Assembly: GCA_043797545.1 (NCBI GenBank)
Contig: JAZDPN010000064.1
Span: forward strand, 1-61,605
DNA length: 61,605 nt
From: Patescibacteria group bacterium
Lineage (GTDB): Bacteria; Patescibacteriota; Gracilibacteria; JAHISY01
Reading direction: 5' to 3'
Position numbers and translations under genes: made by a program. Below, one piece after another: positions 1,699 to 61,294 of this stretch. Position 1 is the first letter of the stretch. Every line of letters begins with the position of its first letter. A model generated the notes under the pieces. That model was not told the DNA's origin, did not search any database, and was given only the letters and a program-made list of their open reading frames with translations.

Positions 1699-1707
1699 TG
1701 TTAAAAT
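1699..1707 (+). promoter_or_regulatory. extended -10 promoter (TGTTAAAAT) for tilS, leaderless geometry
   Basis: TGTTAAAAT followed by 6 nt and then the GTG start at 1714. Confidence 0.5.
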
Positions 1708-1713
1708 CCCTGC

Positions 1714-2625
1714 GTGAAAGTCCTCATCGCCGTCTCGGGCGGGGTCGATTCGGTTGCCCTCCTCGACCTTCTCGCCAAAAAAAAGTTGGGCGGTTTTTTG
1801 GGTAAAAATTTGCCACCGATCGAACTCGTCGGCGTCGCGCATTTCAATCACCGCATTCACCGCGATGCCGCGGCGCACCAAAAATTCGTTCGCGATTTGG
1901 CCGCGAAATATCGCCTGCCATTTTTCACAAAACGCGCGACTACGAAACTGAAATCCGAGGCCGAGGCGCGCGATGCCAGATATAAATTTTTGAAAGCCGT
2001 CGCGCGAAAAACACGAGCCGACACGATCGCGCTCGCTCACCACGCCGACGATCAAGTCGAGACAGTTTTGCTAAATGTGATTCGCGGATCGGGACTTTTG
2101 GGTTTGTCGGGCATGGCCGAATCTCGCGATGGTCTGTGGCGGCCATTACTCGCAATTGCTAAAAAACGATTGTTCGAACATTGCAAAAAAAACAGACTGA
2201 AATTCGTTTATGATCCGACCAATGATGACGCAAATTATTCGCGTAATTTTGTGCGACTAAAAATTATCGGCGAAATGGAACGATTGAATCCGAAAGTCCG
2301 GGAAGCTTTTCTCCGGCTCGCGCAGCACGCCCGTGAAGGCGCGGAACTTGCCGAGCTGCTCGCGCGGGAATTTTTGATTCGCTGCGCGACTGCGAAAAGT
2401 ATTCCATTGAATGAATTCAACGCGCTGCCGCCCGCCGTCGCGAAAGCCGTGATTCGCCAAATTTATTGTCTCGCAGTCGGCAATCTGCAGAAAATCGAAG
2501 CGCTGCACGTCTCGGAAATTTTGGAATTGGCGAAAAATCCGGCGGGCAACAAAACGAAAAAATTCGGCGAGCTGACTTTTCGGACGGGGAAATCAGGCGA
2601 CAAGCGCGTCTTGGCATGGAAGTGA
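1714..2625 (+). CDS. tilS: tRNA(Ile)-lysidine synthase
   Basis: N-terminal PP-loop motif VLIAVSGGVDSVAL. Length and layout are typical of TilS. GTG start. Confidence 0.9.
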   Translation: MKVLIAVSGGVDSVALLDLLAKKKLGGFLGKNLPPIELVGVAHFNHRIHRDAAAHQKFVRDLAAKYRLPFFTKRATTKLKSEAEARDARYKFLKAVARKTRADTIALAHHADDQVETVLLNVIRGSGLLGLSGMAESRDGLWRPLLAIAKKRLFEHCKKNRLKFVYDPTNDDANYSRNFVRLKIIGEMERLNPKVREAFLRLAQHAREGAELAELLAREFLIRCATAKSIPLNEFNALPPAVAKAVIRQIYCLAVGNLQKIEALHVSEILELAKNPAGNKTKKFGELTFRTGKSGDKRVLAWK

Positions 2626-2661
2626 TTTTATGTTAAAATAACAGCACAAAATAAATATTGA

Positions 2662-3177
2662 ATGGGAATTTTGGACATATTCCGTGGCCCAGAAGCGGCT
2701 CAGGCAAAAGAGCTAACTTATGAGCTAAAAACTGAGGTTCTTAGAAATCTAGCCACGTCTTGTCAAGAAAAATTAGCAGGGATCGCTAGGCAGGCTGAGG
2801 CCAAAATCGCAAAAGAGAGCAAGCCGCAAAAGATTGTTACCCATGATATTTTGCGCAGCCGATCTATTCCGAGACCTATTGGAGAAGACCAATTGACCAT
2901 AAAGCTAGGATTCATCAAAACTGAAATTACTAAAAAAATTTTCGAAGGTGTGATATCGCCAGCTGAGCTGCAAGCTTGGCTGACCAGAAAAGGTCAAAAT
3001 ATATCTGTTCAGGAATTACAGCAAATTCTCAGCAAGAAACAACCCATAAATCAAATTACCCTGAAAGAACGTGAGGCGGCAAAGAAAAATAATATCGATG
3101 TTGAATCGGAAATTAATTTTTGGGTTGAGCGGGTTGCCAGCTCAGGAGTTTTCGAACAATTATTGAATCTAAAATAA
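2662..3177 (+). CDS. hypothetical protein (171 aa)
   Basis: Clean ATG ORF in an AT-richer islet. Predicted helical, no recognisable motif. Confidence 0.55.
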   Translation: MGILDIFRGPEAAQAKELTYELKTEVLRNLATSCQEKLAGIARQAEAKIAKESKPQKIVTHDILRSRSIPRPIGEDQLTIKLGFIKTEITKKIFEGVISPAELQAWLTRKGQNISVQELQQILSKKQPINQITLKEREAAKKNNIDVESEINFWVERVASSGVFEQLLNLK

Positions 3178-3186
3178 AAGAAGCCT

Positions 3187-3214
3187 TTGACAGTCGTCTA
3201 GTTTTTGCTAAAAT
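3187..3214 (+). promoter_or_regulatory. sigma70-type promoter of infC-rpmI-rplT (TTGACA-N16-TGCTAAAAT)
   Basis: Consensus -35 TTGACA and extended -10 TGCTAAAAT, seen directly upstream of infC. Confidence 0.6.
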
Positions 3215-3296
3215 TCCGCGGCTTTTTGTTTTTTTAATTTCTTTTTTGCCTCCTCGCAAGAGATACAGTCCAGCCGTGCGGATTCCCCGCCCGATC

Positions 3297-8130: not shown

Positions 8131-8164
8131 GGATTAAGGAGTAAGGAGTAAGAATTAAGTTAAT
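8131..8164. repeat. purine-strand copy of the heptad repeat family (GGATTAAGGAGTAAGGAGTAAGAATTAAG)
   Basis: SD-like TAAGGAG units directly after the secY stop. This is the reverse complement of the CTTAMTY heptads seen at 44225, 57991 and 12801. Confidence 0.6.
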
Positions 8165-9709: not shown

Positions 9710-10033
9710 TTAATTTTGCGCTGGCGCGCCGCCGCTTCCCATCAAACTCTGCATCTCAGCCATTACACCTTTCATCTTTTCAGCCGCAATCTCCTGCGCT
9801 TTTTTAATTCCCTTATTGGCGGCCGAGACAATCGCGGCACCCAATTTTTCCGCATTTTCCGTCGATTTCAGCTCTTCCGGAATCTTGACCGAAATAACTT
9901 CCATTTCGGCATTGACCGTGACGAGCACGCCATCCGTCTCCGCTTCGATGTGAATATTCGCGAGCTCTTTTTTAATTTGCTTCGCTTGCTTCTGCAATTT
10001 GTACATGTCGCGAACCTGACCCAGCATTCCCAT
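9710..10033 (-). CDS. ybaB: nucleoid-associated protein YbaB/EbfC
   Basis: MGMLGQVRDMYKLQKQAKQIKKEL...VTVNAEMEVISVKI is typical of YbaB. Start moved to M32 of the ORF, because the upstream part overlaps the promoter region. Confidence 0.88.
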   Translation of the reverse strand: MGMLGQVRDMYKLQKQAKQIKKELANIHIEAETDGVLVTVNAEMEVISVKIPEELKSTENAEKLGAAIVSAANKGIKKAQEIAAEKMKGVMAEMQSLMGSGGAPAQN

Positions 10034-10056
10034 ATTAAAAAAATTAAAGCGGGACG

Positions 10057-10065
10057 ATTTTAGCA
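10057..10065 (-). promoter_or_regulatory. extended -10 (TGCTAAAAT) for ybaB-mltG
   Basis: Plus strand reads ATTTTAGCA, 23 nt upstream of the ybaB ATG at 10033. Confidence 0.5.
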
Positions 10066-12763: not shown

Positions 12764-12820
12764 ATAAGGAGCGATAAGGATGCTTATAGGAAATGTTTTT
12801 CTTACTCCTTAACTCCTTAT
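12764..12820. terminator. SD-like/anti-SD-like hairpin between convergent tsf and aroD (possible bidirectional terminator)
   Basis: ATAAGGAG..AAGGA pairs with TCCTT..CTCCTTAT (8+5 bp, ~25-nt loop). Built from the heptad repeat family in both orientations. No clean U-tract. Confidence 0.4.
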
Positions 12821-12830
12821 TTCTTAATCC

Positions 12831-13517
12831 TTATTCAAATACTTTCCACCACTCGCGCAATTCAGCAACAGTCAACTGCCCCGGCGCAGTCGCGTTTTTT
12901 TTGTCGAGCGGCGCGAACATACCAAGTCCGCCGATCAGCGGCGTAATCACGCGCGTCGGCTCGCCCGGCTCGCCCATCGCCATCGTGAGAAAACCTTTTT
13001 TCTTTTTCGCGAGCTCCCACGAGATTTGGAAAATCGGCGAGCAGTCGTCAAAAGTTTTCGCGGTCGCAACAATTTTCACAACTTCGGCTTTTAATTTCGC
13101 AGCTTTTTCCGCGATTTGGCGCAGTTTTTCGATCTTCGGCATTTTGGCGAAATCGTGAAACGAGAGAATCAATTTCGCGCCGGCGGAATTTTTTTGGAAT
13201 TGGCGAATCAGTGCGACGGGCGTGTCGAGCGCGAGATCGACGAAACTCGCACCGGATCGCGCCGCGCTCGTCAAAAGTTCGACACGTTTTTTGTCGCCGA
13301 AACGACAAACGCCGTTTTCTTTTTTTGTTTTCAAATTGACGATCACGGGTTTTTTCGCCGCCTGGAGAATTTTTTGAATTTTAGATTCGTCCAAACTTTT
13401 TACTTTGTCGAGCCAAACTTCGATCAAATCCGCCTGATCCTGCGAGTCGAGAATTTGGCGCTCGAAATCCGCGACCGAAATCGGCCGCAACGGAACGATA
13501 ATTTTGGGATTCAACAT
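12831..13517 (-). CDS. aroD: type I 3-dehydroquinate dehydratase
   Basis: 228 aa with the AroD type-I pattern (DLIEVWLD, ILSFHDF, KIVATAKTFDD, MAMGEPG). Confidence 0.88.
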   Translation of the reverse strand: MLNPKIIVPLRPISVADFERQILDSQDQADLIEVWLDKVKSLDESKIQKILQAAKKPVIVNLKTKKENGVCRFGDKKRVELLTSAARSGASFVDLALDTPVALIRQFQKNSAGAKLILSFHDFAKMPKIEKLRQIAEKAAKLKAEVVKIVATAKTFDDCSPIFQISWELAKKKKGFLTMAMGEPGEPTRVITPLIGGLGMFAPLDKKNATAPGQLTVAELREWWKVFE

Positions 13518-14713
13518 TTGCGAATCAAGGTGAATTGAGGCAAATCGTGATTAATTTCGAGCCAAACTTTGGCTTTTTGACCGCCGTGTGCCGCGGAAAT
13601 TTCAGTGAATTTTTCGTCGAAAATTTTACTGATTTCCAATTTTTTTAGCGAGTCGTACGGCGGGACAGCTTCGATTTTATCACCTTTCTGAAGCCGATTT
13701 TTCGGCGTGAGTAAAATTTTTCCGCGGGAACTTTTTTCGACCAGCCCGAGAAAATTTTGCGGATTTTCACTCCCCGACCGTTCGAAATTTTGGAGATTTT
13801 GGAGCGAACCGTCGAAAAATCCGAGCGTGAAATCACGATTGCCAGTCGTCAGAATTTCGTGCCACAAATTTCGGTCGAACTTTTTTCCCGCAGCGAAATC
13901 ATCGAGCGCTTGTCGATACGCGCGAACGATCGTCGCGAGATAGCCGAGCGATTTATTGCGACCTTCGATTTTGAACGAACAAATCCCCGCGCGCGTGAGC
14001 TGCGGAATTTTTTCGAGCAAACAGAGGTCGCGCGAATTCAAAATATAACTGCCTGCGGAATCTTCTTCGAGTGGAAAAAATTCGCCCGGGCGTTTTTCCT
14101 CGACGAGGGAATACGACCAGCGACACGGTTGCGCGCACTGCCCGCGATTCGCGTCGCGTTCAGTCAAAAAATTCGAGAGCAGACAACGCCCGGAGTACGA
14201 CATGCAAATCGCGCCGTGGACAAAAACTTCGAATTCCATTTTCGGATTCGCCGCGACGATTTTTTTAATTTCCGCGAAGGAAAGTTCCCGCGCGAGAATC
14301 ACCCGCGACACGCCGAGCTTTTTCCACTCCCCGACCGTCAGCGAATTGACGGAATTCGCCTGCACGGAAAGATGTTTCGCGACTTTCGGAAAAAATTTCC
14401 GCAGAACGGCGAGCACACCGAGGTCGGAAAAAATGAACGCGTCGGGCGGAGTTTTTTTCAATTTCGCGAGAAAATTCTCCAATTTTTTGAACTCATGATC
14501 GCGCGGAAAAGTGTTCGTCGTGAGGTAAATTTTCTTTTTCGCAGCACGACAAATCGCGATCGCTTTTTGGATCTGTGGAACGCCGAATTTGTTTTCACCG
14601 ACGCGCAGCGAAAAATCAGGTGTGCCGAGATACACCGCGTCCGCACCGAAGGCGAGCGCGACGCGCAATTTTTCGAGATCGCCCGCGGGCGCGAGCAGTT
14701 CGGGCAATTTCAT
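13511..14713 (-). CDS. peptidase U32 family protein
   Basis: MKLPELLAPAGDLEKLRVALAFGADAVYLG is a typical U32 N-terminus and the Cys-containing core is present. Overlaps the aroD start by 7 nt. Confidence 0.88.
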   Translation of the reverse strand: MKLPELLAPAGDLEKLRVALAFGADAVYLGTPDFSLRVGENKFGVPQIQKAIAICRAAKKKIYLTTNTFPRDHEFKKLENFLAKLKKTPPDAFIFSDLGVLAVLRKFFPKVAKHLSVQANSVNSLTVGEWKKLGVSRVILARELSFAEIKKIVAANPKMEFEVFVHGAICMSYSGRCLLSNFLTERDANRGQCAQPCRWSYSLVEEKRPGEFFPLEEDSAGSYILNSRDLCLLEKIPQLTRAGICSFKIEGRNKSLGYLATIVRAYRQALDDFAAGKKFDRNLWHEILTTGNRDFTLGFFDGSLQNLQNFERSGSENPQNFLGLVEKSSRGKILLTPKNRLQKGDKIEAVPPYDSLKKLEISKIFDEKFTEISAAHGGQKAKVWLEINHDLPQFTLIRKC

Positions 14714-14720
14714 TTCAGAG

Positions 14721-14729
14721 ATTTTACAA
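14721..14729 (-). promoter_or_regulatory. -10 element (TTGTAAAAT) 7 nt before the U32 ATG (leaderless geometry)
   Basis: Plus strand reads ATTTTACAA, followed by 7 nt and the CAT at 14711-14713. Confidence 0.45.
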
Positions 14730-14732
14730 GAT

Positions 14733-14760
14733 TTGACAAAAATATTTTTAATATTAAAAT
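14733..14760 (+). promoter_or_regulatory. promoter TTGACA-N16-TAAAAT, 6 nt before the ATG at 14767 (leaderless geometry)
   Basis: Consensus hexamers. The start codon sits at the expected transcription start. Confidence 0.55.
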
Positions 14761-14766
14761 AAATAA

Positions 14767-15363
14767 ATGCAAGATGGTTTGACTACAATCTCGCCAGAAT
14801 GCGGTGGAGGACTAGTTTTGCGTGAACGCGGTCTTTTGCGGCGACTTATTGTTGAAAACTTGCTTCTCCGTAGCTCGCATGCAGGCCAACTTCCACCAAA
14901 TATCAGTGAGGTGGGAATCAAAGGTCTACCATGTCAAATTTTCCGTAGCGGACGCGTGCAAATGGAGCATATATCCGGACTTCAAAACTTGGGTGTAAAA
15001 AGAGTTGTCTCCTTTTATAAACAAGAAAACCCTGCGGCTGATAAACTTCAAAAAAAATTACAATCGGCAGGTATCGAAAGTGAAATAGTCTTTCGTCCAG
15101 CTGAACTGATGGACGCAGATCTAGTACGTCAAATTATAAATACCGTTTTGAGCGATTCAAGAACAAAATTGATAAACTGCCACGCTGGATCTAATCGAAC
15201 CGGGATAATTATTGCAGCAATTCGTAGAATTTACGGGGAGAACTACCAACAAATTTTTCGCGACCTGTGGCTGCACGGCCATATTCCGTTTCCAAAATTC
15301 CGGCATTTTTACCGCGAAATTTTGCCGCAATTTGGAACGCAATCGAGTAAAATCGCGGGGTGA
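14767..15363 (+). CDS. protein tyrosine/dual-specificity phosphatase-like protein
   Basis: CX5R active-site signature INCHAGSNRTGIIIA. AT-richer than its neighbours. The stop overlaps the dus start (GTGA). Confidence 0.7.
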   Translation: MQDGLTTISPECGGGLVLRERGLLRRLIVENLLLRSSHAGQLPPNISEVGIKGLPCQIFRSGRVQMEHISGLQNLGVKRVVSFYKQENPAADKLQKKLQSAGIESEIVFRPAELMDADLVRQIINTVLSDSRTKLINCHAGSNRTGIIIAAIRRIYGENYQQIFRDLWLHGHIPFPKFRHFYREILPQFGTQSSKIAG

Positions 15364-17362: not shown

Positions 17363-17800
17363 TTAGGCTTTTTGATAATCAATCTCGGCCCGGGCCTTTT
17401 CGCGCTCGATGAATCTCTTGCCAACTAGCAAGTCGAAACTCGGCACATCAGCCGCGAGCTGAGTCGCGGTCGGACGATCGAGAATCAGAACTTCCGAATT
17501 GGAAAAAGCGCGCGCCGAAGCATTGCGCGTCTTTTGGCCGAGTGCACCGAGTTCGCCGAAAACGTCGCCCGGTTCGAGAAAAGCGACTTCTTCCGCCATC
17601 CCGTCGGCGATGCGAACAATCTCGACTTCTCCACTTTTGATCACGAAAAGTTGATCGCCGGCTTCACCTTCATGGAAAATGAATTCCCCCGCCGGAAAGC
17701 TTTTAATTTGAATTTTATCAATCAAAGCGGAATCACGTACTGCATCTAGATCGGCAAAAAGCGATAGTTTTTTAATCGCTGCCAGATTTGTAGGGAGCAT
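17363..17800 (-). CDS. stand-alone cyclic-nucleotide-binding domain protein (145 aa)
   Basis: CAP/PKA-type cNMP-binding fold (FHEGEAGDQLFVIKSGEVEI ... FGELGAL...RNASARA). Its TAA stop abuts the pilT ATG with no spacer. Confidence 0.82.
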   Translation of the reverse strand: MLPTNLAAIKKLSLFADLDAVRDSALIDKIQIKSFPAGEFIFHEGEAGDQLFVIKSGEVEIVRIADGMAEEVAFLEPGDVFGELGALGQKTRNASARAFSNSEVLILDRPTATQLAADVPSFDLLVGKRFIEREKARAEIDYQKA

Positions 17801-17829
17801 CCTTTTGGTTTTAGTTTAAAAACGCTGTT

Positions 17830-17838
17830 ATTTTAGCA
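17830..17838 (-). promoter_or_regulatory. extended -10 (TGCTAAAAT) for the cNMP-binding gene and pilT
   Basis: Plus strand reads ATTTTAGCA, 29 nt upstream of the ATG at 17800. Confidence 0.5.
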
Positions 17839-20991: not shown

Positions 20992-21015
20992 TTATTTTTG
21001 TTTTAAAATCATGGC

Positions 21016-21024
21016 ATTTTAGCA
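21016..21024 (-). promoter_or_regulatory. extended -10 (TGCTAAAAT) for the FecR-like gene
   Basis: Plus strand reads ATTTTAGCA, ~25 nt upstream of the ATG at 20991. Confidence 0.5.
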
Positions 21025-23472: not shown

Positions 23473-23478
23473 AGGGAA

Positions 23479-23487
23479 ATTTTAGCG
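23479..23487 (-). promoter_or_regulatory. -10 element (CGCTAAAAT) 6 nt before the cyclase GTG (leaderless geometry)
   Basis: Plus strand reads ATTTTAGCG, followed by 6 nt and the CAC at 23470-23472. Confidence 0.5.
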
Positions 23488-23511: not shown

Positions 23512-23586
<75 letters not shown>

Positions 23587-23597
23587 ACGAGGCCTGA

Positions 23598-23606
23598 ATT
23601 TTAGCG
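23598..23606 (-). promoter_or_regulatory. -10 element (CGCTAAAAT) 11 nt upstream of the tRNA-fMet 5' end
   Basis: Plus strand reads ATTTTAGCG. Confidence 0.45.
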
Positions 23607-40695: not shown

Positions 40696-41400
40696 TTAAG
40701 CCGTCGTAACTTCACCAGATCCAGTTTTTCCGTCGCAAACAACAACTTTATTGCGTCCAGCATCTTTAGCCTCGTAAAGTTTGTCATCAGCTCGTTTCCG
40801 AAGCTGTTCTGCTGTCTCTTTTGGCAACCTCTGAGCAACGCCCAAGCTAGCCGTTGCAGTGAGAATCTTATTCTCACCTGTTTTTGGATCTTTAAAATTA
40901 ACTTCCATATTTTCGATTTTCTTACGTAATTTTTCAGCAATCGCTTGAGCGTCTTCCAAATCGGTGTTCGGCAAAATAATTGCAAGTTCGTCACCGCCAG
41001 TACGCGCCACAATGTCTGTATTGCGCACAGCACATTTGAGCAAAGCCGCTATATCTTTTAAAAATTTGTCCCCGGCAAGGTGACCGCCGAAGTTATCATT
41101 AATAATTTTGAAATGATCAATATCGATTACTATAATCGATAATGACTTGTCAGTTTCTCTTTCTTGGACAGCAATTTCTCGATCAAGACTAAGAGAAAAA
41201 CAACGAAGATTATGCAATTCTGTCAAACCGTCGATCATAGATTTATCATTAAGGTCACGAAACATAGCAGCGATTCCTGCACGGTTTTTTCTTCTCAGTT
41301 TTAAAAGCGTCAATAATTGATCTTCCGGCAAATCGGGAAACTCTTGTTTGAACTTAATAAGCTTACGACTCAAAAGACGCTCTTTAATTTTAAAATCCAT
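40696..41400 (-). CDS. diguanylate cyclase (GGDEF domain, GGDEL variant) without sensor domain
   Basis: DGLTELHNLRCF..., IIVIDIDHFKIINDNFGGHLAGD, RNTD I-site positioned 5 residues before ARTGGDELAIILP. Confidence 0.85.
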   Translation of the reverse strand: MDFKIKERLLSRKLIKFKQEFPDLPEDQLLTLLKLRRKNRAGIAAMFRDLNDKSMIDGLTELHNLRCFSLSLDREIAVQERETDKSLSIIVIDIDHFKIINDNFGGHLAGDKFLKDIAALLKCAVRNTDIVARTGGDELAIILPNTDLEDAQAIAEKLRKKIENMEVNFKDPKTGENKILTATASLGVAQRLPKETAEQLRKRADDKLYEAKDAGRNKVVVCDGKTGSGEVTTA

Positions 41401-41407
41401 GACCGAT

Positions 41408-41416
41408 AGTTTACCA
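41408..41416 (-). promoter_or_regulatory. extended -10 (TGGTAAACT) 7 nt before the GGDEF ATG (leaderless geometry)
   Basis: Minus strand reads TGGTAAACT-ATCGGTC-ATG. Confidence 0.45.
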
Positions 41417-44224: not shown

Positions 44225-44294
44225 CTTAATCCTTACTTCTTACTTCTTAATCCTTACTTCTTAATTCTTAATCCTTACTTCTTAATTCTTAATC
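44225..44294 (+). repeat. ten perfect tandem heptads CTTA[A/C]T[C/T] (21-nt super-unit CTTAATC-CTTACTT-CTTAATT), G-free
   Basis: Read directly. The 70 nt end 5 nt before the rplU ATG. Confidence 0.9.
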
Positions 44295-44299
44295 CTGTA

Positions 44300-44617
44300 A
44301 TGACCAAATTTGCAATCATCGGCGTCGGCGGCAAACAATTCCGTGTCAGCGAAGGCGACAAAATCGTAGCTGAAAAAGTCGCGGAAGCGAGCGACCAACC
44401 GATCAAAATTAATCATGTCTTTCTGATCGCGGATGGCGACGAGGTAAAAATCGGCACACCTCTAGTCGAGGGCGCGAGTGTCGAGGCGAAAGTTTTGGAA
44501 GTAAAAAAAGGCGAGAAAGTACGCGTTTTCAAAATGAAGCAGCGCAAACGCTATCACCGCGAAAAAGGCCATCGCCAGCTCGAGGCGACGATCGAAATTT
44601 TGAAGATCAAAGGCTAA
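44300..44617 (+). CDS. rplU: 50S ribosomal protein L21
   Basis: FAIIGVGGKQFRVSEGDKIVAEK... is a typical L21. Confidence 0.93.
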   Translation: MTKFAIIGVGGKQFRVSEGDKIVAEKVAEASDQPIKINHVFLIADGDEVKIGTPLVEGASVEAKVLEVKKGEKVRVFKMKQRKRYHREKGHRQLEATIEILKIKG

Positions 44618-44626
44618 AATCTTGGG

Positions 44627-46189
44627 GTGAATTTTTTGCGCCGTCTCTCCCCGCTCGCGAACTTCAATGAGTTCTTCATCAGTTGGGTTTATTTCGTGCA
44701 AGGCAGCGCGAGTATTTTTGGCATCGCGGAAGCGTTAATTTTGCGCGAGCAGCTCGGATTGGATTTCGCGCAAATCGCACTCGTCGGCGCAGCCTCGATT
44801 ATTCCGTGGAGCATCAAACCGCTTTACGGAATTTTGACCGATCTCGTGCCGATCGGGAAATATCGGCGACGACCGTATTTGCATTTTTTCCCGCTGCTCG
44901 CGGTCGCGGGCTACGCTTGGATCGCGCTTTTTGGTGATAGTTTTTTGAGCTATTTGCTGCCGCTGGTCATCGCGAATATCGGTCTCGGCTTCGTCGATGT
45001 CGCGACGGACGGCTTCGTCGTCGAGCAGTCCAATCCGCAAAATGTCGCGCGTTTGCAGGGCATCACGCAAGCGTCGATTCGCGTCGCGGCTTTTCTCGCC
45101 AGCTTTTTTTCCGGGCTTTTAATTTTTCGCGCAATCCTCACTCCGCACCAAATTTTTTGGATTGCGGCGGCGCTTCCCCTTTTGACGACGATTTTTTCGT
45201 TTGGAATTCGCGAAGAGCCAGTGACGAAAAGTGAAGAAACCGTGGCGCGACACGAATTGACTCCAGCTTTCGTGGTGAGCTTGCTCGGTATTTTTGGCTT
45301 AATTATTTTTAATCTCGCACTGCCGGATTTTTTACCCGGGCTGACGCATTTGCCGGGAATGTTTTGGAGCACAGTTTCGTGGTCGGGATTTTTCGCGTGG
45401 CTGACCGCGTATTTTTGGCGGTTGAAAAAAATGCAACTCGCGAGCGGCATGATTTTTCTCGCAATGCTTTTTATTTTGCTTTGGCGCTTCAATCCCGGCG
45501 CGAGCACGCCGATGTTTTTTTATTTGAAAGATGAGCTGAAAATCTCGGAAGAAACGCTCGGTTTCATTTCGACGGCGTCGCAGGTCGCGTCGATTTTGGC
45601 AGTAATTCTGGCGGTGAAATTTTTCGATAAATTTCATTTGAAAAAAGTGCTCGGCTGGTCGGTCGTCGCAGCAGGATTATTCGGAATTTCCAGCTTCGCG
45701 CTGACGCGCGTCGACTGGTCAATCGCGCTCGGCTCGAATTTTTTTGTCAAAATTTTGGGGTCGGCGATCGCGCTGCCAGTTTATTTTTTCGAGGCGGTCT
45801 TCACGAAAATCGGCGGCGGAGCGTGGACGAATTTTTGGACGACCGCGACGAGCATGAGTCCGATTGAGAATTTTCTGTTCGTTCAAGGTTTTTTCGCGGA
45901 ATTACTTTTCATGATCGCGTACATTCCGCTTTTCAAATTGGCTGTGCTCATCACACCGAAACGCGCCGAAGCGACGAATTTCGCGGTGATCGCGGCGGTG
46001 ATGAATATTGGTCTCGCGCTCTCGACTTACGCGAGCGGCACGCTGTACGAATTTTTTCGCAATCCCGCGCTCGACGAATCCGCGCTCGACTTGAGCGCAA
46101 TCGAGATTTTGATTTGGATTAATGTCCTGACTTCGTTCGCCTGTCTTTTCGTTTTGCCGTTTATTCGGGAAAGAGAGATTGTGAAATAA
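44627..46189 (+). CDS. folate/biopterin transporter (BT1) family MFS protein
   Basis: About 12 TM helices. WSIKPLYGILTDLVPIGKYRRRPY is the BT1 signature region. Confidence 0.8.
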   Translation: MNFLRRLSPLANFNEFFISWVYFVQGSASIFGIAEALILREQLGLDFAQIALVGAASIIPWSIKPLYGILTDLVPIGKYRRRPYLHFFPLLAVAGYAWIALFGDSFLSYLLPLVIANIGLGFVDVATDGFVVEQSNPQNVARLQGITQASIRVAAFLASFFSGLLIFRAILTPHQIFWIAAALPLLTTIFSFGIREEPVTKSEETVARHELTPAFVVSLLGIFGLIIFNLALPDFLPGLTHLPGMFWSTVSWSGFFAWLTAYFWRLKKMQLASGMIFLAMLFILLWRFNPGASTPMFFYLKDELKISEETLGFISTASQVASILAVILAVKFFDKFHLKKVLGWSVVAAGLFGISSFALTRVDWSIALGSNFFVKILGSAIALPVYFFEAVFTKIGGGAWTNFWTTATSMSPIENFLFVQGFFAELLFMIAYIPLFKLAVLITPKRAEATNFAVIAAVMNIGLALSTYASGTLYEFFRNPALDESALDLSAIEILIWINVLTSFACLFVLPFIREREIVK

Positions 46190-49606: not shown

Positions 49607-49645
49607 AATTAGGGAATAGGTTTTAGGTTTTAGGGTTTAGTAATT
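49607..49645. repeat. heptad repeat block (AGGGAAT-AGGTTTT-AGGTTTT-AGGGTTT-AGTAATT on plus strand)
   Basis: On the minus strand it reads ...AAACCCT-AAAACCT-AAAACCT-ATTCCCT-AATT-ATG and abuts the cysE start. It overlaps the last codons of the four-helix-bundle gene. Confidence 0.65.
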
Positions 49646-49988
49646 TTTTCCGAATTGCGGTGAGCATTTTACCAACTTCACCCAAATCAGCGAGCAATTC
49701 TTTTGCCTGTCCGGAATTTAAATATTTGAATTCTTGCGAAAGTAAAATTTGAGTTTCCAACTCGGCGCAAGACCCAAGCGAATTACTTAAAAAATGTGCG
49801 TAATCTTTCCGAGTCGCGCGCGCGTAGCCTTCGGCAATATTAGAGACAATCGAAATCGCGCATCTCCTCATTTGTGATTTCAAACCAAATTCCTCATTTC
49901 GTGGAAAATTTTCAGTAAATTTATAGACCTTTTTTGACAGCACAAAAGCTTTCTGCCAAACAATCAGTTCTTTGAAATTTTTAATCAT
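49623..49988 (-). CDS. four-helix-bundle protein (23S rRNA intervening-sequence protein / S23-type family)
   Basis: [13 protein letters not shown]...[11 protein letters not shown]....[14 protein letters not shown] is the family signature. The ATG at M8 is preceded by TATAGT plus 6 nt. Confidence 0.85.
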
Positions 49989-50000
49989 AAATTTACTATA

Positions 50001-50029
50001 CCCTATCACCTAACCCCTATACCCTACTT
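50001..50029. repeat. heptad repeat block (CCTATCA-CCTAACC-CCTATAC-CCTACTT)
   Basis: Inverted relative to the block at 49607-49645. Overlaps the valS stop and the four-helix-bundle gene's -10 region. Confidence 0.6.
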
Positions 50030-52675
50030 CAAAATTTTGAGACGCTCCTCAATCTTCGCAATCTTTTCTTCGACGGCTTGCAATTTCGCTCGCTCAGCAT
50101 CGACGACATTCTTCGGGGCGCGTTCGGTAAAATCTTTGTTCGCCAATTTTTTCTGAATCACGCCGAGGTAAATTTGCGCTTCTTTCAGGTCGGCATTCAA
50201 GCGTTTTTTCTCGACTTTCGGATCGAGCAATTTGTCGAGCGGCAGATAAATTTCCAAATCCGCTTCGATTTTCGCGACTGCGTTTTCGACTTTTTTGCCA
50301 GACTTTTTGACTGTGAGCGAATTGAGTCGTGCGAGTTTTTTGATTTCGTTCGATTGCTTTTTGAGGAATGATTCGAACTTACCAGCGTGGACGATCGCGG
50401 CGATTTTGCGTCCCGGCTCGACGGACATTTCGGCTCGCACTGAGCGAATCGCAGAAATAATCGCAATCACAATTTTCATTTCTTCTTCCATCCTCAGATT
50501 GATTCGGCCTTTGCTCGGTTTCGGATATTTCTCAAGCGCGAGCAATTTTGGCTTTTTCGAATTCGGGAAAAAGTTCTCCCAAATTTTCTCCGTCGCGAAC
50601 GGAATGAATGGATGCGCGAGTCGGAGAATTTGCGCCAAAACATGGCCGAGCAATTTTTTGTTCGGCGCTTCTTTGGTCAGCTCGAGATACCAATCGCAAA
50701 AATCCGACCAAACAAATTCTTGAATTTTGGCGGCCGCCTCGGCAAACGCGTATTTGTCGAAAGCCTGATTCGTCTCGAGAATCAGCCTGTTCAATTTGGA
50801 AAGAATCCAGCGATCGGGCAAACCGCGCGGCGTTGGATTCGCGGGCATCTCGGGTTTTTTGCCGAGCACGCCGAAAACATAACGCGACGCATTCCAAAGT
50901 TTATTGACGAAATTGCGCTGACCGGTGACTTTCGTTTCGGAGAATTTGAGGTCTGTGCCGGGCGTCGAGCCGACGACGAGCGAAAGTCGCAACGCGTCCG
51001 TGCCGTATTTTTCGATCATCGCGAGCGGATCGATGCCGTTATTCAAAGATTTCGACATTTTGCGACCCTGCTCATCGCGCACGAGTCCGTGCAGATAAAC
51101 TGTTTTGAATGGAACTTTACCAGTGAATTCGAGGCCAAGCATGACCATCCGCGCGACCCAGAAAAAGAGAATATCGTAGCCAGTCTCGAGGATCGTATTC
51201 GGATAAAAAGTACGAAAATCTTTCGTCGATTTCGGCCAACCGAGCGTCGCGAAAGGCCACAGTCCGCTCGAAAACCAAGTGTCGAGAACATCCGCGTCGC
51301 GAACGAGACTGAGATTGCCGCAAGTCGGACATTTTTTCGGCTCTTTTTCGGAAACAATCACGCGCTGGCAACCTTCCTTTTTCTTACTTTTTTTGTCCGC
51401 AAATTCGGGTACTTTTTTGCAATACCAGACCGGCAATTGATGTCCCCACCACAGCTGGCGGGAAACGCACCAGTCCCGAATCTCGTCCAACCAGCGAACA
51501 AATTCTTTTTCGAAACGCGCCGGGACAAATTCGATTTGCTTCTTTTTGACTGCTTTCAAAGCCTTTTCCGCAAGCGGCTGCATTTTGACAAACCACTGCA
51601 TCGATTCGAGCGGTTCGATCGTCGCGTCGCAGCGCGAGCAGTGCCCGACCGAGTGCGCGTGTTTTTCAATTTTTTCGAGATTACCGATATCGTCAAGATA
51701 TTTGATCACGGCTTTGCGTGCTTCATTCAAAGGCATGCCAACGAAACGCCGGCCAGCGTGCTTCGTCATTTTTCCCTGCGGGCCGATCACGACGATCGAC
51801 GGCAATTTGTGATCGCGGCCGATTTCCGCGTCGAGCGGATCGTGCGCCGGCGTGATTTTCACCGCGCCAGTGCCAAATTTCGGATCAACTCGAGAATCGG
51901 CGATGACTTTAATTTCGCGATTCACGATCGGGAGTATCAAAGTTTTGCCAATGAAATCGTGGTATCGTCGGTCGTCCGGATGCACCGCGACTGCGACATC
52001 ACCGAGCATCGTCTCCGGTCGAGTCGTCGCGACACAAATCGAGCGGTCAGTCGCGGACACAAAGTAGCGAATGAAATATAAATTGCCTTCTTCTTCGCGG
52101 TGCTCGACTTCGATGTCGGAGAGAACGGTTTTGCAGCGCGGGCACCAATTCACGAGTCTTTTATCGCGGTAAATCAGTTTCTTTTTGTAAAGCTCGACAA
52201 AAGCTTTGGTCACGGCGGCGGAGCGCTCGTCGTCGAGCGTAAAAGCTTCGCGTTCCCAATCACAGCTCGCGCCCATTTTGCGAATTTGCTCGGAAATCCT
52301 GGCGTGATATTTGTCTTTCCACTGCCAAACTTTTTTGACAAATTCCTCCCGGCCTAGCTGATCACGAGTCAGACCTTTTTCGAATAATCTTTTTTCGACA
52401 ACATTTTGCGTCGCGATGCCAGCGTGATCCGTCCCCGGCAGCCAAAGCACATCGTGTCCGGTCATTCGCGAATGGCGCGCGATGATGTCCTCGATCGTCA
52501 AAGTAATCGCGTGTCCGAGATGCAGCGCGCCAGTCACATTCGCCGGCGGCATCATCATCGTGAAAACTTTTTTCTTGGCTTTACCGACAGCTTTACCAAG
52601 ATTTTGACTGGCCCATTTTTGCGCAATCTCGTTTTCGACTTCTTTCGGAATGTACGCTTTCGCGATTTCGTCCAT
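50024..52675 (-). CDS. valS: valyl-tRNA synthetase
   Basis: PPANVTGALHLGHA (HIGH), KMSKSLNN (KMSKS), CP1 editing domain and C-terminal coiled coil. The ATG at M18 of the ORF is supported by CGCTAAAAT 7 nt upstream. Confidence 0.95.
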   Translation of the reverse strand: MDEIAKAYIPKEVENEIAQKWASQNLGKAVGKAKKKVFTMMMPPANVTGALHLGHAITLTIEDIIARHSRMTGHDVLWLPGTDHAGIATQNVVEKRLFEKGLTRDQLGREEFVKKVWQWKDKYHARISEQIRKMGASCDWEREAFTLDDERSAAVTKAFVELYKKKLIYRDKRLVNWCPRCKTVLSDIEVEHREEEGNLYFIRYFVSATDRSICVATTRPETMLGDVAVAVHPDDRRYHDFIGKTLILPIVNREIKVIADSRVDPKFGTGAVKITPAHDPLDAEIGRDHKLPSIVVIGPQGKMTKHAGRRFVGMPLNEARKAVIKYLDDIGNLEKIEKHAHSVGHCSRCDATIEPLESMQWFVKMQPLAEKALKAVKKKQIEFVPARFEKEFVRWLDEIRDWCVSRQLWWGHQLPVWYCKKVPEFADKKSKKKEGCQRVIVSEKEPKKCPTCGNLSLVRDADVLDTWFSSGLWPFATLGWPKSTKDFRTFYPNTILETGYDILFFWVARMVMLGLEFTGKVPFKTVYLHGLVRDEQGRKMSKSLNNGIDPLAMIEKYGTDALRLSLVVGSTPGTDLKFSETKVTGQRNFVNKLWNASRYVFGVLGKKPEMPANPTPRGLPDRWILSKLNRLILETNQAFDKYAFAEAAAKIQEFVWSDFCDWYLELTKEAPNKKLLGHVLAQILRLAHPFIPFATEKIWENFFPNSKKPKLLALEKYPKPSKGRINLRMEEEMKIVIAIISAIRSVRAEMSVEPGRKIAAIVHAGKFESFLKKQSNEIKKLARLNSLTVKKSGKKVENAVAKIEADLEIYLPLDKLLDPKVEKKRLNADLKEAQIYLGVIQKKLANKDFTERAPKNVVDAERAKLQAVEEKIAKIEERLKILK

Positions 52676-52682
52676 CTTGTCG

Positions 52683-52691
52683 ATTTTAGCG
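52683..52691 (-). promoter_or_regulatory. -10 element (CGCTAAAAT) 7 nt before the valS ATG (leaderless geometry)
   Basis: Minus strand reads TCGCTAAAAT-CGACAAG-ATG. Confidence 0.55.
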
Positions 52692-52829: not shown

Positions 52830-52838
52830 TGCTAAAAT
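52830..52838 (+). promoter_or_regulatory. extended -10 (TGCTAAAAT) 7 nt before the TTG at 52846 (leaderless geometry)
   Basis: CTGCTAAAAT-CAGCTTA-TTG. Confidence 0.5.
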
Positions 52839-52845
52839 CAGCTTA

Positions 52846-53802
52846 TTGAATCCCAAATTTTCGATCGGTCTCGTTTTATTTGAAACGAAATTTTTGGAGC
52901 AAGCGCTCCCCTCGCTCTTCGCACAAAAATTTGAGTCAGTCGAATTTCTAATCCGCGATCACTCGTCCGATTTCGTCGCAAGTAAATTGATCGAAAAAAA
53001 TTTTCCGGAAATTGCGAAAAAAGCACAGATTTTTCGCGGAGAAAATCTCTGGCATTCGGGCGGAATGAATTTTTTGATCGGAAAATCCCGGGGTGAATTT
53101 TTCGTCGCGGCGTCGACCGATATACTTTACGAGCCGAATTTTTTGAAAAAAGCGGCGAAAATTTTGCACGATCCAGCGAACAAAAAAGTCGGCGTGCTCG
53201 GCGGAAAATTGAAAAAATGGAATGCAGAGAAAAACGCGCGACTCGAAATCCTCGACTCCGCTGGGATCGGCGCGACCCGCGCGGGGCGTTTTTTCGAAAT
53301 CGGCGGTGGACAAAATTCGCGGAAATTTTCCACGGAAAAAATCGTGTTCGGGATTTCCGCAGCGCTCGCGATTTATCGGCGCGCCGCACTAGAAGAAGTC
53401 GCCGTCGACGGGAAATTTTTCGACGAAAAATTACATTTCAAAAATGATGTCGACCTCGCGTTTCGCTTGAATTGGCTCGGCTGGTCGGCGAAATTTTCGC
53501 CAGAGATCGTGGCGTGGCACGCGCGCGGACTCGGTGATGCGAAGTCGCGCCGAAACCGCTCTGCGTTCGAACGCAAAAATTCTATGTTCGGACAATTCGT
53601 CGTGATCGCAAAAAATTGGGACGAAAACTTTTCGCTCCGCACAAAAATTGCTACGAAAATTCGGCAGCTCGCGCTCCGGATTTTTGCATTTTTCGCCGAA
53701 CCCGAAAAAAACGGAATTCGAAAATTTGACGCAATTCAGGGAGAATTGAAACCAACACCGCGCAAAATCTCAGCCGCGGAAGTTGAAAAACTTTTTACAT
53801 AA
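52846..53802 (+). CDS. family 2 glycosyltransferase
   Basis: FSIGLVLFETKFLEQALPSLFAQKF..VEFLIRDHSSD is a GT-A N-terminus, with a DxD-like STD. TTG start chosen from the promoter geometry. The track ORF is open from 52732. Confidence 0.75.
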   Translation: MNPKFSIGLVLFETKFLEQALPSLFAQKFESVEFLIRDHSSDFVASKLIEKNFPEIAKKAQIFRGENLWHSGGMNFLIGKSRGEFFVAASTDILYEPNFLKKAAKILHDPANKKVGVLGGKLKKWNAEKNARLEILDSAGIGATRAGRFFEIGGGQNSRKFSTEKIVFGISAALAIYRRAALEEVAVDGKFFDEKLHFKNDVDLAFRLNWLGWSAKFSPEIVAWHARGLGDAKSRRNRSAFERKNSMFGQFVVIAKNWDENFSLRTKIATKIRQLALRIFAFFAEPEKNGIRKFDAIQGELKPTPRKISAAEVEKLFT

Positions 53803-57035: not shown

Positions 57036-57514
57036 TAAATTTGATTCAAAAGACCACCCGCCAAAACAATTTTTTGCAAAAATTCTGGCAACGGCTCAAG
57101 CGCAAATTCAGTTTTTTGGGTCAAATTTTTAATTTTCGAATTGGTTAAATCAATCTCGATCGCGTCATTTTCGGCAAATTTTGCGGTCGCGTTTTCGAGG
57201 ACGAAAGTCGGCAAACCAAAATTGACCGAGTTGCGGAAAAAAATCCGCGCGAACGAATCAGCTACAACGGCACGGACACCCGCACCGACGAGCGCCCAAA
57301 CTGCGTGCTCGCGGGAACTTCCGCAACCGAAATTTTGACCCGCAATCACAATCGGATTTTGGGCCGATTTTAATTTTTCTCCCCCAATCGCCTCGAGAGC
57401 ATGAGCCGCCAATTCGGTCTGATCTGAGCTGGTCAGATAGCAAGCCGGAATAATCAAGTCGGTATCGATATCGTCCCGGGCAAAAATTTGCGCCGAGCCA
57501 GAGATGTTTTTCAT
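57035..57514 (-). CDS. leuD: 3-isopropylmalate dehydratase small subunit (archaeal-type LeuD, 159 aa)
   Basis: DDIDTDLIIPACYL, IVIAGQNFGCGSSREHAVWAL, ADSFARIFFRNSVNFGLP. No leuC is adjacent. Confidence 0.88.
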   Translation of the reverse strand: MKNISGSAQIFARDDIDTDLIIPACYLTSSDQTELAAHALEAIGGEKLKSAQNPIVIAGQNFGCGSSREHAVWALVGAGVRAVVADSFARIFFRNSVNFGLPTFVLENATAKFAENDAIEIDLTNSKIKNLTQKTEFALEPLPEFLQKIVLAGGLLNQI

Positions 57515-57520
57515 AAGGGC

Positions 57521-57529
57521 ATTTTAGCA
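57521..57529 (-). promoter_or_regulatory. extended -10 (TGCTAAAAT) 6 nt before the leuD ATG (leaderless geometry)
   Basis: Minus strand reads TTTGCTAAAAT-GCCCTT-ATG. Confidence 0.55.
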
Positions 57530-59551: not shown

Positions 59552-59601
59552 ATTTTGGATACCGCTACGCAAATTCCCTTTATTTAAGCCAAATCAAGCT
59601 T

Positions 59602-59621
59602 TTCGCGCAAGCGAATTTTTT
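59602..59621 (+). terminator. short intrinsic terminator after leuA
   Basis: TTCGC-GCAA-GCGAA (5-bp stem, GNRA loop) followed by TTTTTT. Confidence 0.35.
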
Positions 59622-59681
59622 GTGAAAAGTATTGACCGAAATAAAGACCATCTATACTCTTTCGCAAACTTTTTTTCGGGT

Positions 59682-59810
59682 ATGACTGAATTGGAAGAGA
59701 TCGATCTGATGACTGGCAAGGCGCTCAAGCTGCTAACCAAGGTTTTGCTACTCGCTGGAGCTTTCACTTTATTTGGTCTACTAGCGATGAAACTTTTAAA
59801 AGTTTTTTAG
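59682..59810 (+). CDS. hypothetical tail-anchored small membrane peptide (42 aa)
   Basis: MTELEEIDLMTGKALKLLTKVLLLAGAFTLFGLLAMKLLKVF. Preceded by TTGACC-N15-TATACT (59632-59658). Its 3' end overlaps the convergent fumarase gene by 4 nt. Confidence 0.35.
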   Translation: MTELEEIDLMTGKALKLLTKVLLLAGAFTLFGLLAMKLLKVF

Positions 59811-61279
59811 ATTTTACCGCCCTGCGCATCCATCCCGACGATCGCGAGCAAATTTTCAACCTCCAATTCCCACATCGCCTCGGGCATGCCGAACTCGTCG
59901 AGAAAATCGACCCCGCGAACTTCGCGAATCGCGTCCGCGTAAAAAGCCGCCGCGCCGCCGATCGCGTGGCAATAAACCGCGCCGAATTTTTGGAGTGCTT
60001 TTTGGGTCGCCTCTCCCATTCCGCCTTTGCCGATCAAAATGCGAGCACCAGTTTTGGCGAGAAATTGCGGCGTGAATGCATCGAGCCGCGCACTCGTCGT
60101 CGGTCCCGCCGCGACAATTTTCCAAATTTCCTTTTCGGAAAATTTGCCTCGAGCTTGCTTGTAGTGAGCTTGTTGAACCTGTCGAGAGGCGACTTTTTGG
60201 CGAATCGCGATCGGACCGGCGTGAAAAATACCGAGATTTTGCAAATTTTTCGGCAATTTATTTTTGAGTGCGAACTGGTGCACCTGATCGCGCGCGGTGA
60301 AAATACAACCAGAAACCGCTACCAAATCGCCCACCCGTAATTCGCGAACTTCTTTTTCCGAAGTCGGAAGCGTTATTTTTCGCGCATTTTTCGGAGTGAA
60401 ATCCGTCGGGAGCATTCTTTTCGAAAAATCATTCGCGAGAATTTTGCCCGCGGAATCGACTACGATTTTCGCGCGGCGCGTCGCCCAGCACGAGTACGCG
60501 AGCGTCACGAAAAAGCTCGCGGGGTGGCGCGGCAGCTTAGCAATTTTGCAATCGAGCAGCGTCGTCCTCCCGCCGAGCCCGCCCGCGCCGATCCGCGTCG
60601 AATTAATTTTGCGGAGAATCGTCGCTTCCATTTTCGCCAAAACCGGATTGGAATTTGGTGTTCCGATTTTGGTAAGCAGGTTCTTCTTTGCCAATTTGAA
60701 AGCCTCGGCTCGGTCGCCGCCGACGACGATCGACGCGACTCCCGGCGGGCAGCCTTTCGCGACGGAATTTTCGAGCAACTCACGCGCAGCTTTTTCGATC
60801 CCGGCGAGATCGCGTCCGGCAAGCCCGAATTTTGTCTCCGCGGGAAGTGAAATTTGCGCGGACACATTTTCGCTCCCGCCGCCTTTCAGCAAAACTTGAA
60901 TTTTGCTGATCGAACTCGCGGAGATTTCAAATTCGATTTTCGGGCGATTCCCAAGATTTTTGCCGGAAATTGGATCGACAGAATTCGGGCGGAGCAATCC
61001 GACTTTCGTCGCTTTTTTCGTCGCGGCGATAATTGCCTTTCCAATTTTCTCCCAATTTTTTGGCAAGGATTTCACAAAAAAAGTGATCGCCCCGGTGTCT
61101 TGGCAAATCGGACGCGCCGATTTTTTCGCGCGAGCGATATTTTCGAGAATGATCTCGAATGCGATTTTTCCGCGGGCATCGGACTCGCGACTTTTCGCGG
61201 AAATGAGCGACTCGACGACATCCGCTGGCAAATTCGTCGCGGCAGCGTGAATGAGTTCGAAAATCGAGTCAGTAATCAC
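59807..61279 (-). CDS. class I (Fe-S) fumarate hydratase / tartrate dehydratase-type hydro-lyase, fused alpha+beta
   Basis: Alpha part has PICQDTGAITFFVK and KGGGSENVS. Beta part has VSGCIFTARDQVH, GPTTSARLD and LIGKGGMG. GTG start. Confidence 0.85.
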   Translation of the reverse strand: MITDSIFELIHAAATNLPADVVESLISAKSRESDARGKIAFEIILENIARAKKSARPICQDTGAITFFVKSLPKNWEKIGKAIIAATKKATKVGLLRPNSVDPISGKNLGNRPKIEFEISASSISKIQVLLKGGGSENVSAQISLPAETKFGLAGRDLAGIEKAARELLENSVAKGCPPGVASIVVGGDRAEAFKLAKKNLLTKIGTPNSNPVLAKMEATILRKINSTRIGAGGLGGRTTLLDCKIAKLPRHPASFFVTLAYSCWATRRAKIVVDSAGKILANDFSKRMLPTDFTPKNARKITLPTSEKEVRELRVGDLVAVSGCIFTARDQVHQFALKNKLPKNLQNLGIFHAGPIAIRQKVASRQVQQAHYKQARGKFSEKEIWKIVAAGPTTSARLDAFTPQFLAKTGARILIGKGGMGEATQKALQKFGAVYCHAIGGAAAFYADAIREVRGVDFLDEFGMPEAMWELEVENLLAIVGMDAQGGKI

Positions 61280-61285
61280 GCGCGC

Positions 61286-61294
61286 ATTTTAGCC
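61286..61294 (-). promoter_or_regulatory. -10 element (GGCTAAAAT) 6 nt before the fumarase GTG (leaderless geometry)
   Basis: Minus strand reads TGGGCTAAAAT-GCGCGC-GTG. Confidence 0.5.

Follow-up and report, generated by a model that had tools for sequence, protein, structure and literature searches.

A TAAAAT promoter box in fixed register with start codons points to widespread leaderless mRNAs in a Peribacteria-like bacterium

The 61,605-nucleotide (nt) contig JAZDPN010000064.1 of assembly GCA_043797545.1, from a Patescibacteria group bacterium and hereafter called the window, carries one short word, TAAAAT, in front of many of its genes. An earlier note, made from the letters of this contig alone, had read the word as a promoter element placed so close to the start codon that transcription would begin at, or within one or two nucleotides of, the first codon. 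Our follow-up argues strongly for this reading: in this Peribacteria-like bacterium with a genome of about 1 Mb, a TAAAAT −10 box 6–7 nt before start codons very probably gives rise to widespread leaderless mRNAs without a Shine–Dalgarno (SD) sequence. Where transcription starts, and that translation is leaderless, we infer from DNA sequence; the reading is supported by a sharp peak in the spacing between box and start codon, a purine at the seventh base after the box, boxes in front of tRNA genes, a conservation footprint, start-codon swaps between orthologues, the points at which Pfam models begin and the start sites called in the public NCBI annotation. The window is contig C5 of a metagenome-assembled genome (MAG) of 79 contigs (995 kb, 48.7% G+C, estimated completeness 93.6%), and it was compared with approximately 1 Mb of DNA from relatives, including one genome of the same genus (G007) and two from other genera of the family (G010 and G011).

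The box stands at a fixed distance from start codons

In the window, the extended word YGYTAAAAT occurs 17 times against 4.7 copies expected, a count reached in none of 100 dinucleotide-preserving shuffles, and 16 of the 17 copies lie upstream of a gene and are directed at it, consistent with the earlier claim that such a word is reused ahead of genes. Sorted by distance, eight copies stand 6–7 nt from a start codon, seven at 21–31 nt and one 11 nt before a tRNA-Met gene; the remaining copy, on the minus strand at 24487, has no clear target. The earlier note had also named 14 genes with the box, or a variant of it, 6–7 nt before the start, and we confirmed box, spacing and start codon for all 14, with gene identities borne out by Pfam.

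On the plus strand these are the leaderless unit headed by tilS (1699–1716; TGTTAAAAT, 6 nt, GTG at 1714), whose G007 orthologue starts with ATG at the same spacing, a PTP-like phosphatase gene (14752–14769; TAAAAT, 6 nt, ATG at 14767) that is divergent from the U32 peptidase gene, and the gene for a GT2 glycosyltransferase of 318 amino acids (aa) (52830–52848; TGCTAAAAT, 7 nt ending in a purine, TTG at 52846). The others lie on the minus strand. Among them, a spacing of 7 nt is seen for the U32 peptidase (14711–14729; TAAAAT, ATG at 14713), a response-regulator receiver of 118 aa (29497–29515; TAAAAT, ATG at 29499), metF (30366–30384; TGCTAAAAT, ATG at 30368; conserved in G007 and G011), pgsA (34013–34031; TAAAAT, GTG at 34015; 178 aa), a 64-aa open reading frame (ORF) preceding argG (36476–36494; TGCTAAAAT, GTG at 36478; conserved in G007), a GGDEF protein (41398–41416; TAAACT, ATG at 41400) and valS (52673–52691; CGCTAAAAT, ATG at 52675; 883 aa). 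A spacing of 6 nt is seen for a CHASE2 adenylate/guanylate cyclase (23470–23487; CGCTAAAAT, GTG at 23472), a PF05635 four-helix-bundle protein (49986–50003; TATAGT, ATG at 49988), leuD (57512–57529; TGCTAAAAT, ATG at 57514) and a class I fumarase (61277–61294; GGCTAAAAT, GTG at 61279). Three cases in the window go beyond the original list, all on the plus strand with a spacing of 6 nt and a GTG start: a dihydrouridine synthase (Dus; 15345–15362, GTG at 15360), whose TAAAAT box (15348–15353) lies within the 3′ end of the preceding gene; a histidine kinase (27044–27061, GTG at 27059), in which the last T of the box CGCTAAAAT (27047–27054) is overlapped by the stop codon of the preceding gene; and a BT1/MFS transporter (44612–44629, GTG at 44627), for which the TAA of the TAAAAT box (44615–44620) is the stop codon of rplU; this transporter unit is conserved in G006.

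The same geometry recurs throughout the MAG. We took each ATG, GTG or TTG at the head of an ORF of 100 aa or more and scored it at all distances from TAAAAT, which gave 86 starts at 6 nt and 66 at 7 nt, compared with approximately 5–20 at other spacings and about 12 at each neighbouring one. Together these two spacings hold 152 starts, where approximately 24 would be expected, and a second, broad rise appears at 21–25 nt. When the ORF condition was dropped, TAAAAT-N6-RTG occurred 107 times and the N7 form 77 times, against 20–29 times for N8 to N13. The genome-wide count that the earlier note had proposed as a check thus gave an excess at 6–7 nt over other spacings. Measured as the excess over control spacings, a strict −10 box stands at 6–7 nt from approximately 150–170 of about 960 ORFs. 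The looser hexamer TAnnnT is found there in 163 of 456 genes likely to be first in their unit, compared with about 32 at control spacings, a figure that includes hexamers derived from the TTAAY word described below. A rule-based assignment yielded 194 leaderless candidates, of which 89 follow a divergent neighbour and 46 lie at most 25 nt behind a co-directional gene. Overlap of box and upstream gene is a recurrent arrangement in the genome: in 15 cases the preceding gene ends on the TAA of TAAAAT, and six further gene pairs share a GTGA or ATGA overlap that places the box within the preceding coding sequence.

The start codons of the 194 candidates are ATG in 111, GTG in 77 and TTG in six, so that GTG makes up 40% of leaderless starts, compared with 3% of starts in the TTAAY class. 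No genome-wide excess of TTG was found at 6–7 nt from TAAAAT. In mycobacteria, a 5′-terminal ATG or GTG is necessary and sufficient for leaderless initiation and TTG is ineffective (PMC4633059). The earlier view that GTG and TTG leaderless starts are noteworthy therefore needs dividing: GTG is not exceptional given the mycobacterial precedent, and TTG is not enriched, yet the TTG of the GT2 gene is strongly conserved. That TTG, which follows TGCTAAAAT by 7 nt and has a purine before it, is conserved in eight sequences representing four genera and is GTG in a ninth. The GT2 orthologues mostly lack an in-frame start upstream, one of them (G009) has a stop codon directly upstream, and the conserved Rossmann strand starts at residue 6.

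Protein-level information agrees with the predicted starts. Pfam models begin at residues 2–6 of TilS, PgsA, the fumarase, the receiver and the PF05635 protein. In the public NCBI annotation, PgsA has 178 aa, GT2 318 aa, the receiver 118 aa and TilS 303 aa, in each case exactly the short form; for PgsA (240 aa), GT2 and the receiver, the longest-ORF versions are missing from it. The earlier proposal that the box geometry resolves ambiguous starts thus holds for pgsA, GT2 and the receiver; the secreted protein that had been included among them, with ATG at 36638, proved to be leadered (22 nt) rather than leaderless.

The box has the properties of a −10 promoter element

We conclude that the box is a −10 promoter element and not a ribosome-binding site, on five lines of evidence that concern tRNA genes, the context of the box, the sigma factors encoded, the seventh base and the 5′ ends predicted from it. 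Of the 43 tRNA genes, 16 have the box ending 8–13 nt, mostly 8–9 nt, ahead of the mature 5′ end; in the window, CGCTAAAAT precedes the mature 5′ end of tRNA-Met by 11 nt (23586–23606, minus strand), where it would serve as the promoter of a non-coding gene. The box is preceded by G at −2 in 63% of cases, by TG in 30% and by a T-tract at −8 to −5. The sigma factors encoded in the genome are a single primary one (418–444 aa) and four small ones of the extracytoplasmic function (ECF) type. A −35 hexamer was also sought: TTGnnn is not enriched at a spacing of 16–18 nt, and none is recognisable.

The seventh base after the box follows a codon-dependent rule. With a spacing of 6 nt, this base opens the codon itself, as the G of GTG or the A of ATG. 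With 7 nt, ATG follows a purine in 60 of 67 cases in this genome and in 27 of 33 in G007, and GTG follows a C in 11 of 15 cases here and in six of seven in G007, which would shift transcription initiation onto the G. Messages are thus predicted to begin with GUG, AUG or R-AUG. This purine rule is a signature of transcription start rather than of ribosome binding.

The register is conserved in relatives

G007, G010 and G011 show the same spacing peak and the same register, with GTG at 6 nt and ATG at 7 nt. Box and start codon are retained by orthologues from three other genera, in which spacer and flanking sequence have diverged. Across 62 G007 orthologues of the candidates, sequence identity is approximately 40% upstream of the box, 71–89% in the hexamer, 35–53% in the spacer and 79–92% in the start codon, after which identity takes on the 3-base periodicity of coding sequence. 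A strict box is kept at 6–7 nt in 43 of 56 G007 orthologues of leaderless genes, compared with 14 of 119 in the class of other genes, and in G010 in 15 of 26 compared with three of 52. At the same aligned position, ATG and GTG are swapped in 16 cases (seven in G007 and nine in G010), including tilS, the fumarase and valS. The fumarase start is GTG in G007, G008, G005 and on contig C64 of the MAG, and ATG in G010; among valS orthologues, TAnnnT is kept at 7 nt in seven of nine sequences, with the hexamer itself varying.

Shine–Dalgarno pairing appears to be unused

The earlier note had found no SD sequence at the leaderless genes, and this absence extends to the genome as a whole, in which start codons are preceded by SD-like words less often than internal ATGs are. 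None of the SD k-mers shows enrichment ahead of start codons, and GGAG, GAGG and AGGA are under-represented: between −20 and −4, these words occur before 3.6% of leaderless, 0.7% of TTAAY-class and 3.9% of other starts, compared with 11.2% of internal in-frame ATGs. The check on 16S ribosomal RNA (rRNA) and ribosomal protein S1 that had been proposed could be made in relatives, as both genes are missing from this MAG. There, the 16S 3′ tail is canonical, containing CCUCC (GGATCACCTCCTTTCT), in four genomes of the same genus, and S1 is present. An altered anti-SD behind the pyrimidine-rich leaders was accordingly rejected, the tail reading CACCUCCUUUCU in the same four genomes. Loss of S1 was likewise rejected, since the absence of rpsA from the MAG is attributable to incomplete assembly and S1-type matches occur in ORFs of approximately 400–500 aa in relatives, those scanned from the same genus included. 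No match to bS21 (PF01165) was found in any of 12 family genomes, which agrees with the report that bS21 is frequently absent in Peregrinibacteria and Gracilibacteria (PMC9297842).

The spacer immediately 3′ of 16S in relatives (loci L091–L100) contains an SD-like stretch that is able to pair with the anti-SD. In the same genus, CCTCCTTTCT is followed by AGGGAG, whose place is taken in other families by TAAGGAG or GAGGAG; G027 has changes on both sides together, to CCTCTCTA followed by GAAAGAGA. The stretch probably belongs to the pre-rRNA, a situation also found in Firmicutes.

Leadered genes carry a TTAAY word and, in some cases, heptad arrays

A different word, TTAAY, stands 8–10 nt before approximately 140 starts (about 15% of ORFs), 88% of which are ATG, in all gene contexts. 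These leaders are G-poor and pyrimidine-rich and become A-rich directly before the ATG. In about half of the TTAAY genes the −10 box ends 9–10 nt upstream of TTAA, which implies leaders of approximately 15–18 nt. We considered whether TAATTT might be a second −10 box with further leaderless genes behind it. This is unlikely, because the motif is really TTAAY(Y), often without the final T, and the true −10 box lies 9–10 nt farther upstream in about half of the cases. Pairing of UUUAAY with a GUUAAA in the 16S 3′ trailer was also rejected: the trailer differs in G002 and G010, yet G010 retains the TTAAY peak, and at the position that would lie opposite an A, C is as frequent as U.

In the window, leadered genes include a unit at 2631–2664 (plus strand; TGTTAAAAT, 22 nt, ATG at 2662), infC, encoding IF3 (3206–3248, plus strand; TGCTAAAAT, a 31-nt U-rich leader with TTAAT, TTG at 3246), a TTAAY short-leader gene (10031–10065, minus strand; TGCTAAAAT followed by cgtcccGCTTTAATTTTTTTAAT, ATG at 10033), genes for a cNMP-binding protein (17798–17838, minus strand; TGCTAAAAT, 29-nt leader, ATG at 17800) and a FecR-domain protein (20989–21024, minus strand; TGCTAAAAT, 24-nt leader, ATG at 20991), the secreted protein discussed above (36607–36640, plus strand; TGCTAAAAT, 22-nt leader) and aspartyl-tRNA synthetase (AspRS), with a short TTAAY leader (37896–37928, plus strand; TGCTAAAAT followed by caggcaGCTTTAATTTTTTTG, ATG at 37926); infC, the cNMP-binding protein, the FecR-domain protein and AspRS were identified by Pfam. 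The earlier suggestion that longer leaders mark the classic autoregulated genes is too narrow, as AspRS, the cNMP-binding and FecR-domain proteins and approximately 140 other genes have in common a short, G-poor leader with the TTAAY word. The apparent TTG start of infC, among the few non-ATG leadered starts, would fit the way in which infC usually regulates itself, by means of an unusual start codon.

Multi-copy versions of the TTAAY word occur as tandem heptads, CYTANYY (CTTAATC, CTTACTC, CTTAGTT), in 3–22 copies. The genome contains 30 such arrays, three of them in the window (44225–44294 on the plus strand, 8132–8159 on the minus strand and 12816–12836 on the plus strand), and approximately 18 of the 30 end 1–11 nt ahead of a start codon. 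Judged by eye, the genes behind them presumably include those for ATP synthase alpha, GAPDH, enolase, ribosomal proteins S9, S12, S13 and L21, LeuA and GlmS. Orthologous leaders vary widely in copy number. The rplU leader (44225–44302, plus strand; ATG at 44300) consists of ten tandem CTTAATC/CTTACTT heptads, compared with two to three copies in G007 and G008. Heptads are almost confined to the genus, with 98 matches against 16 for the reversed control here, 98 against nine in G008 and none in most other families.

Alternative explanations

The closeness of the box to the start codon, at a distance typical of a ribosome-binding site, raises the question of whether TAAAAT might bind ribosomes, independently of SD, on mRNAs that are leadered or polycistronic, like the AT-rich motifs of the group B genomes of GeneMarkS-2, rather than act as a promoter. 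In line with this, 46 of the 194 candidates lie at most 25 nt behind a co-directional gene, which in 15 of them ends on the TAA of the box, and other genes have a different word (TAATTT/TTAAY) about as far from their start. A ribosome-binding word would not be expected at a fixed distance before untranslated tRNA genes, however, nor 21–25 nt upstream of TTAAY-class genes. The box also matches TANNNT with an upstream G, its seventh base obeys the purine rule, and the 89 candidates at divergent intergenic regions represent an enrichment; we therefore regard this explanation as highly improbable. It is also improbable, if somewhat less so, that the boxes are real promoters pushed against genes by compaction, with proteins made mainly from longer transcripts by SD-independent internal initiation and little leaderless translation. 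The genome is very compact, tRNA promoters are also just 8–9 nt away from their genes, and the translation of leadered genes without SD implies that an SD-independent internal mode exists. Nevertheless, nearly half of the candidates come first after a divergent neighbour, leaving no room for another promoter; the 6–7-nt register, the codon-dependent seventh base and the 40% share of GTG are hard to explain unless the 5′ end matters; and the register is conserved across genera.

That the pattern is an artefact, of A/T-rich intergenic DNA or of starts chosen to fit the motif, was tested and found no support, and we give this explanation almost no credence. Intergenic DNA is indeed rich in A and T, and starts in a MAG are assigned with some uncertainty, but dinucleotide-preserving shuffles fail to reproduce the motif count, 6–7 nt alone is prominent when all starts are scored at all spacings, and a reversed-pattern control gives 24 matches against 121. 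Orthologue conservation, start-codon swaps and the N-terminal coverage of Pfam models also fit the predicted starts. Several points do weigh against widespread leaderless expression or soften the numbers given for it. In 46 of the 194 candidates the box lies in, or on the end of, a co-directional upstream gene, so read-through transcripts with internal starts may also exist. Agreement with the NCBI starts is only partly independent evidence, since a −10 box close to the start is built into the GeneMarkS-2 model. Gene calls for the genome-wide counts came from a simple in-house ORF scorer, and these counts are approximate because the MAG contains contigs from a second strain: ValS on C64 is 91% identical to ValS on C5, and the neighbouring genes are duplicated too. 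Two related strains or species are thus binned together, and C64 has promoter variants of its own, such as TATCAT in place of TAAAAT before valS.

A model for initiation

The preferred reading, leaderless expression from a −10 box abutting the gene, can be put as follows. TAAAAT after a T-rich tract, often with a G two bases upstream and without a −35 element, would be the −10 element recognised by the sole primary sigma factor. The box stands exactly 6 or 7 nt before the start codon at approximately 170–190 of about 950 ORFs, roughly one gene in five and about a quarter of the genes that come first in their unit. RNA polymerase would start at the seventh base, a purine, so that the mRNA would open with GUG or AUG at spacing 6 and, at spacing 7, with a single purine ahead of AUG, and the ribosome would read the 5′-terminal start codon directly, as in mycobacteria and Deinococcus. 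At other unit-first genes, the same box 21–25 nt upstream would produce G-poor leaders of 15–18 nt with TTAAY 8–9 nt before the ATG. SD pairing would go unused in both cases, although relatives retain the CCUCC tail of 16S rRNA.

A broader proposal, which we put forward tentatively and hold to be possible rather than probable, is that the family initiates translation without any SD pairing, by two conserved modes. One would be strict-register leaderless initiation, on GUG at +1, on AUG at +1 or after one purine, and on at least one UUG at +2. The other would use very short G-free leaders whose 5′-proximal UUAAY recruits ribosomes through a short four-domain S1 or another ribosomal component, a signal that may have been amplified in this genus to arrays of 3–22 heptads before highly expressed genes.

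Distribution and relation to known systems

To survey the distribution, we used a crude ratio, the number of TANAAT-N6-RTG matches over that of the reversed pattern. The counts are 121 and 24 in this genome. The ratio is 2.3–6-fold across the family, reaches 7.5-fold in some genomes of one other family and is 1–1.7-fold in most of the class; about one-tenth of 150 genomes of the phylum show a ratio of at least threefold. The leaderless trait therefore appears to be lineage-specific and patchy within the Candidate Phyla Radiation (CPR).

The closest precedent is group C of GeneMarkS-2, comprising Actinobacteria and Deinococcus–Thermus, in which a Pribnow box lies 6–8 nt before the start and 25–50% of units are predicted to be leaderless (PMC6028130). 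As in group C members such as M. tuberculosis, M. smegmatis, Corynebacterium, Streptomyces and Deinococcus deserti, TANNNT lies 6–8 nt before many unit-first starts, and RTG rather than TTG is enriched; approximately a quarter of units would be leaderless here. Unlike in group C, where the remaining genes are SD-led, SD-like words are depleted here and a TTAAY, G-poor leader takes their place. Group C genomes that use genetic code 11 are nearly all high in G+C (10.1101/2022.07.25.500264), whereas the present genome has a mid-range 48.7% and belongs to the Patescibacteria; it further departs from a textbook group C case in the class-specific share of GTG and in one conserved TTG in the +2 register.

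The Bacteroidota (group B) resemble this genome in keeping the CCUCC tail while avoiding SD, in the A-rich bases before leadered ATGs and in an A/T-rich non-SD upstream signal. They differ in that their motif precedes nearly all genes and leaderless expression is not the main mode, and bS21 is absent here (12 of 12 genomes). In a Flavobacterium ribosome structure, bS21 reportedly forms part of the pocket that sequesters the anti-SD.

Candidatus Peribacter riflensis, from a related CPR lineage, has been tabulated as SD-scarce; this scarcity is common to both, and the promoter–start geometry, the leaderless class and the TTAAY leader are not described there (PMC10783764). Our literature searches found no report of leaderless genes in CPR or Patescibacteria. 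Leaderless expression itself is already known, and it appears here in a lineage for which we found no report of it.

These results would extend leaderless-rich expression to the Patescibacteria, in a patchy manner according to the pattern scan, which suggests that the trait is strong in the host family and a minority of others. They also suggest that transcription units and true start codons of this family can be read straight from DNA, which matters because uncultured CPR genomes are annotated without experimental data. The family may offer a natural case of SD loss, with the anti-SD tail kept and both SD use and bS21 gone, that bears on SD-independent initiation in reduced genomes. For heterologous expression of these CPR genes, a native ribosome-binding site should not be expected.

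Further observations on the genome and the window

The closest match to ValS is from the MAG bacterium isolate BP8.bin32, at 88% identity, and the remaining ValS matches are at most 48% identical. Genomes of the same class measure 0.7–2 Mb, and TGA is a sense codon in some members, which, with the long 16S matches mentioned below, fits the CPR class to which Gracilibacteria and Peribacteria belong; the host family uses the standard genetic code. An Rfam scan of the window found three tRNAs and nothing else.

The perfect TGCTAAAAT at 24487–24495 on the minus strand is followed by approximately 320 nt without a convincing ORF, up to a 111-aa gene at 24124. The sole ORF in between encodes 65 aa from a TTG start, and Rfam returned nothing convincing downstream of the box, with a weak ROSE_3 match on the opposite strand (E = 0.09). 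The region from 24487 to about 24125 could be one long leader, or it could encode a small protein or an RNA that went unrecognised.

At 49623–50035 on the minus strand, the PF05635 gene, whose family is that of 23S rRNA intervening-sequence proteins, has on its flanks G-rich heptads (TAGGGTA/TAGGTTT), which overlap the end of valS. Several 16S matches in genomes of the same class exceed the 1533-position model, which would fit insertions.

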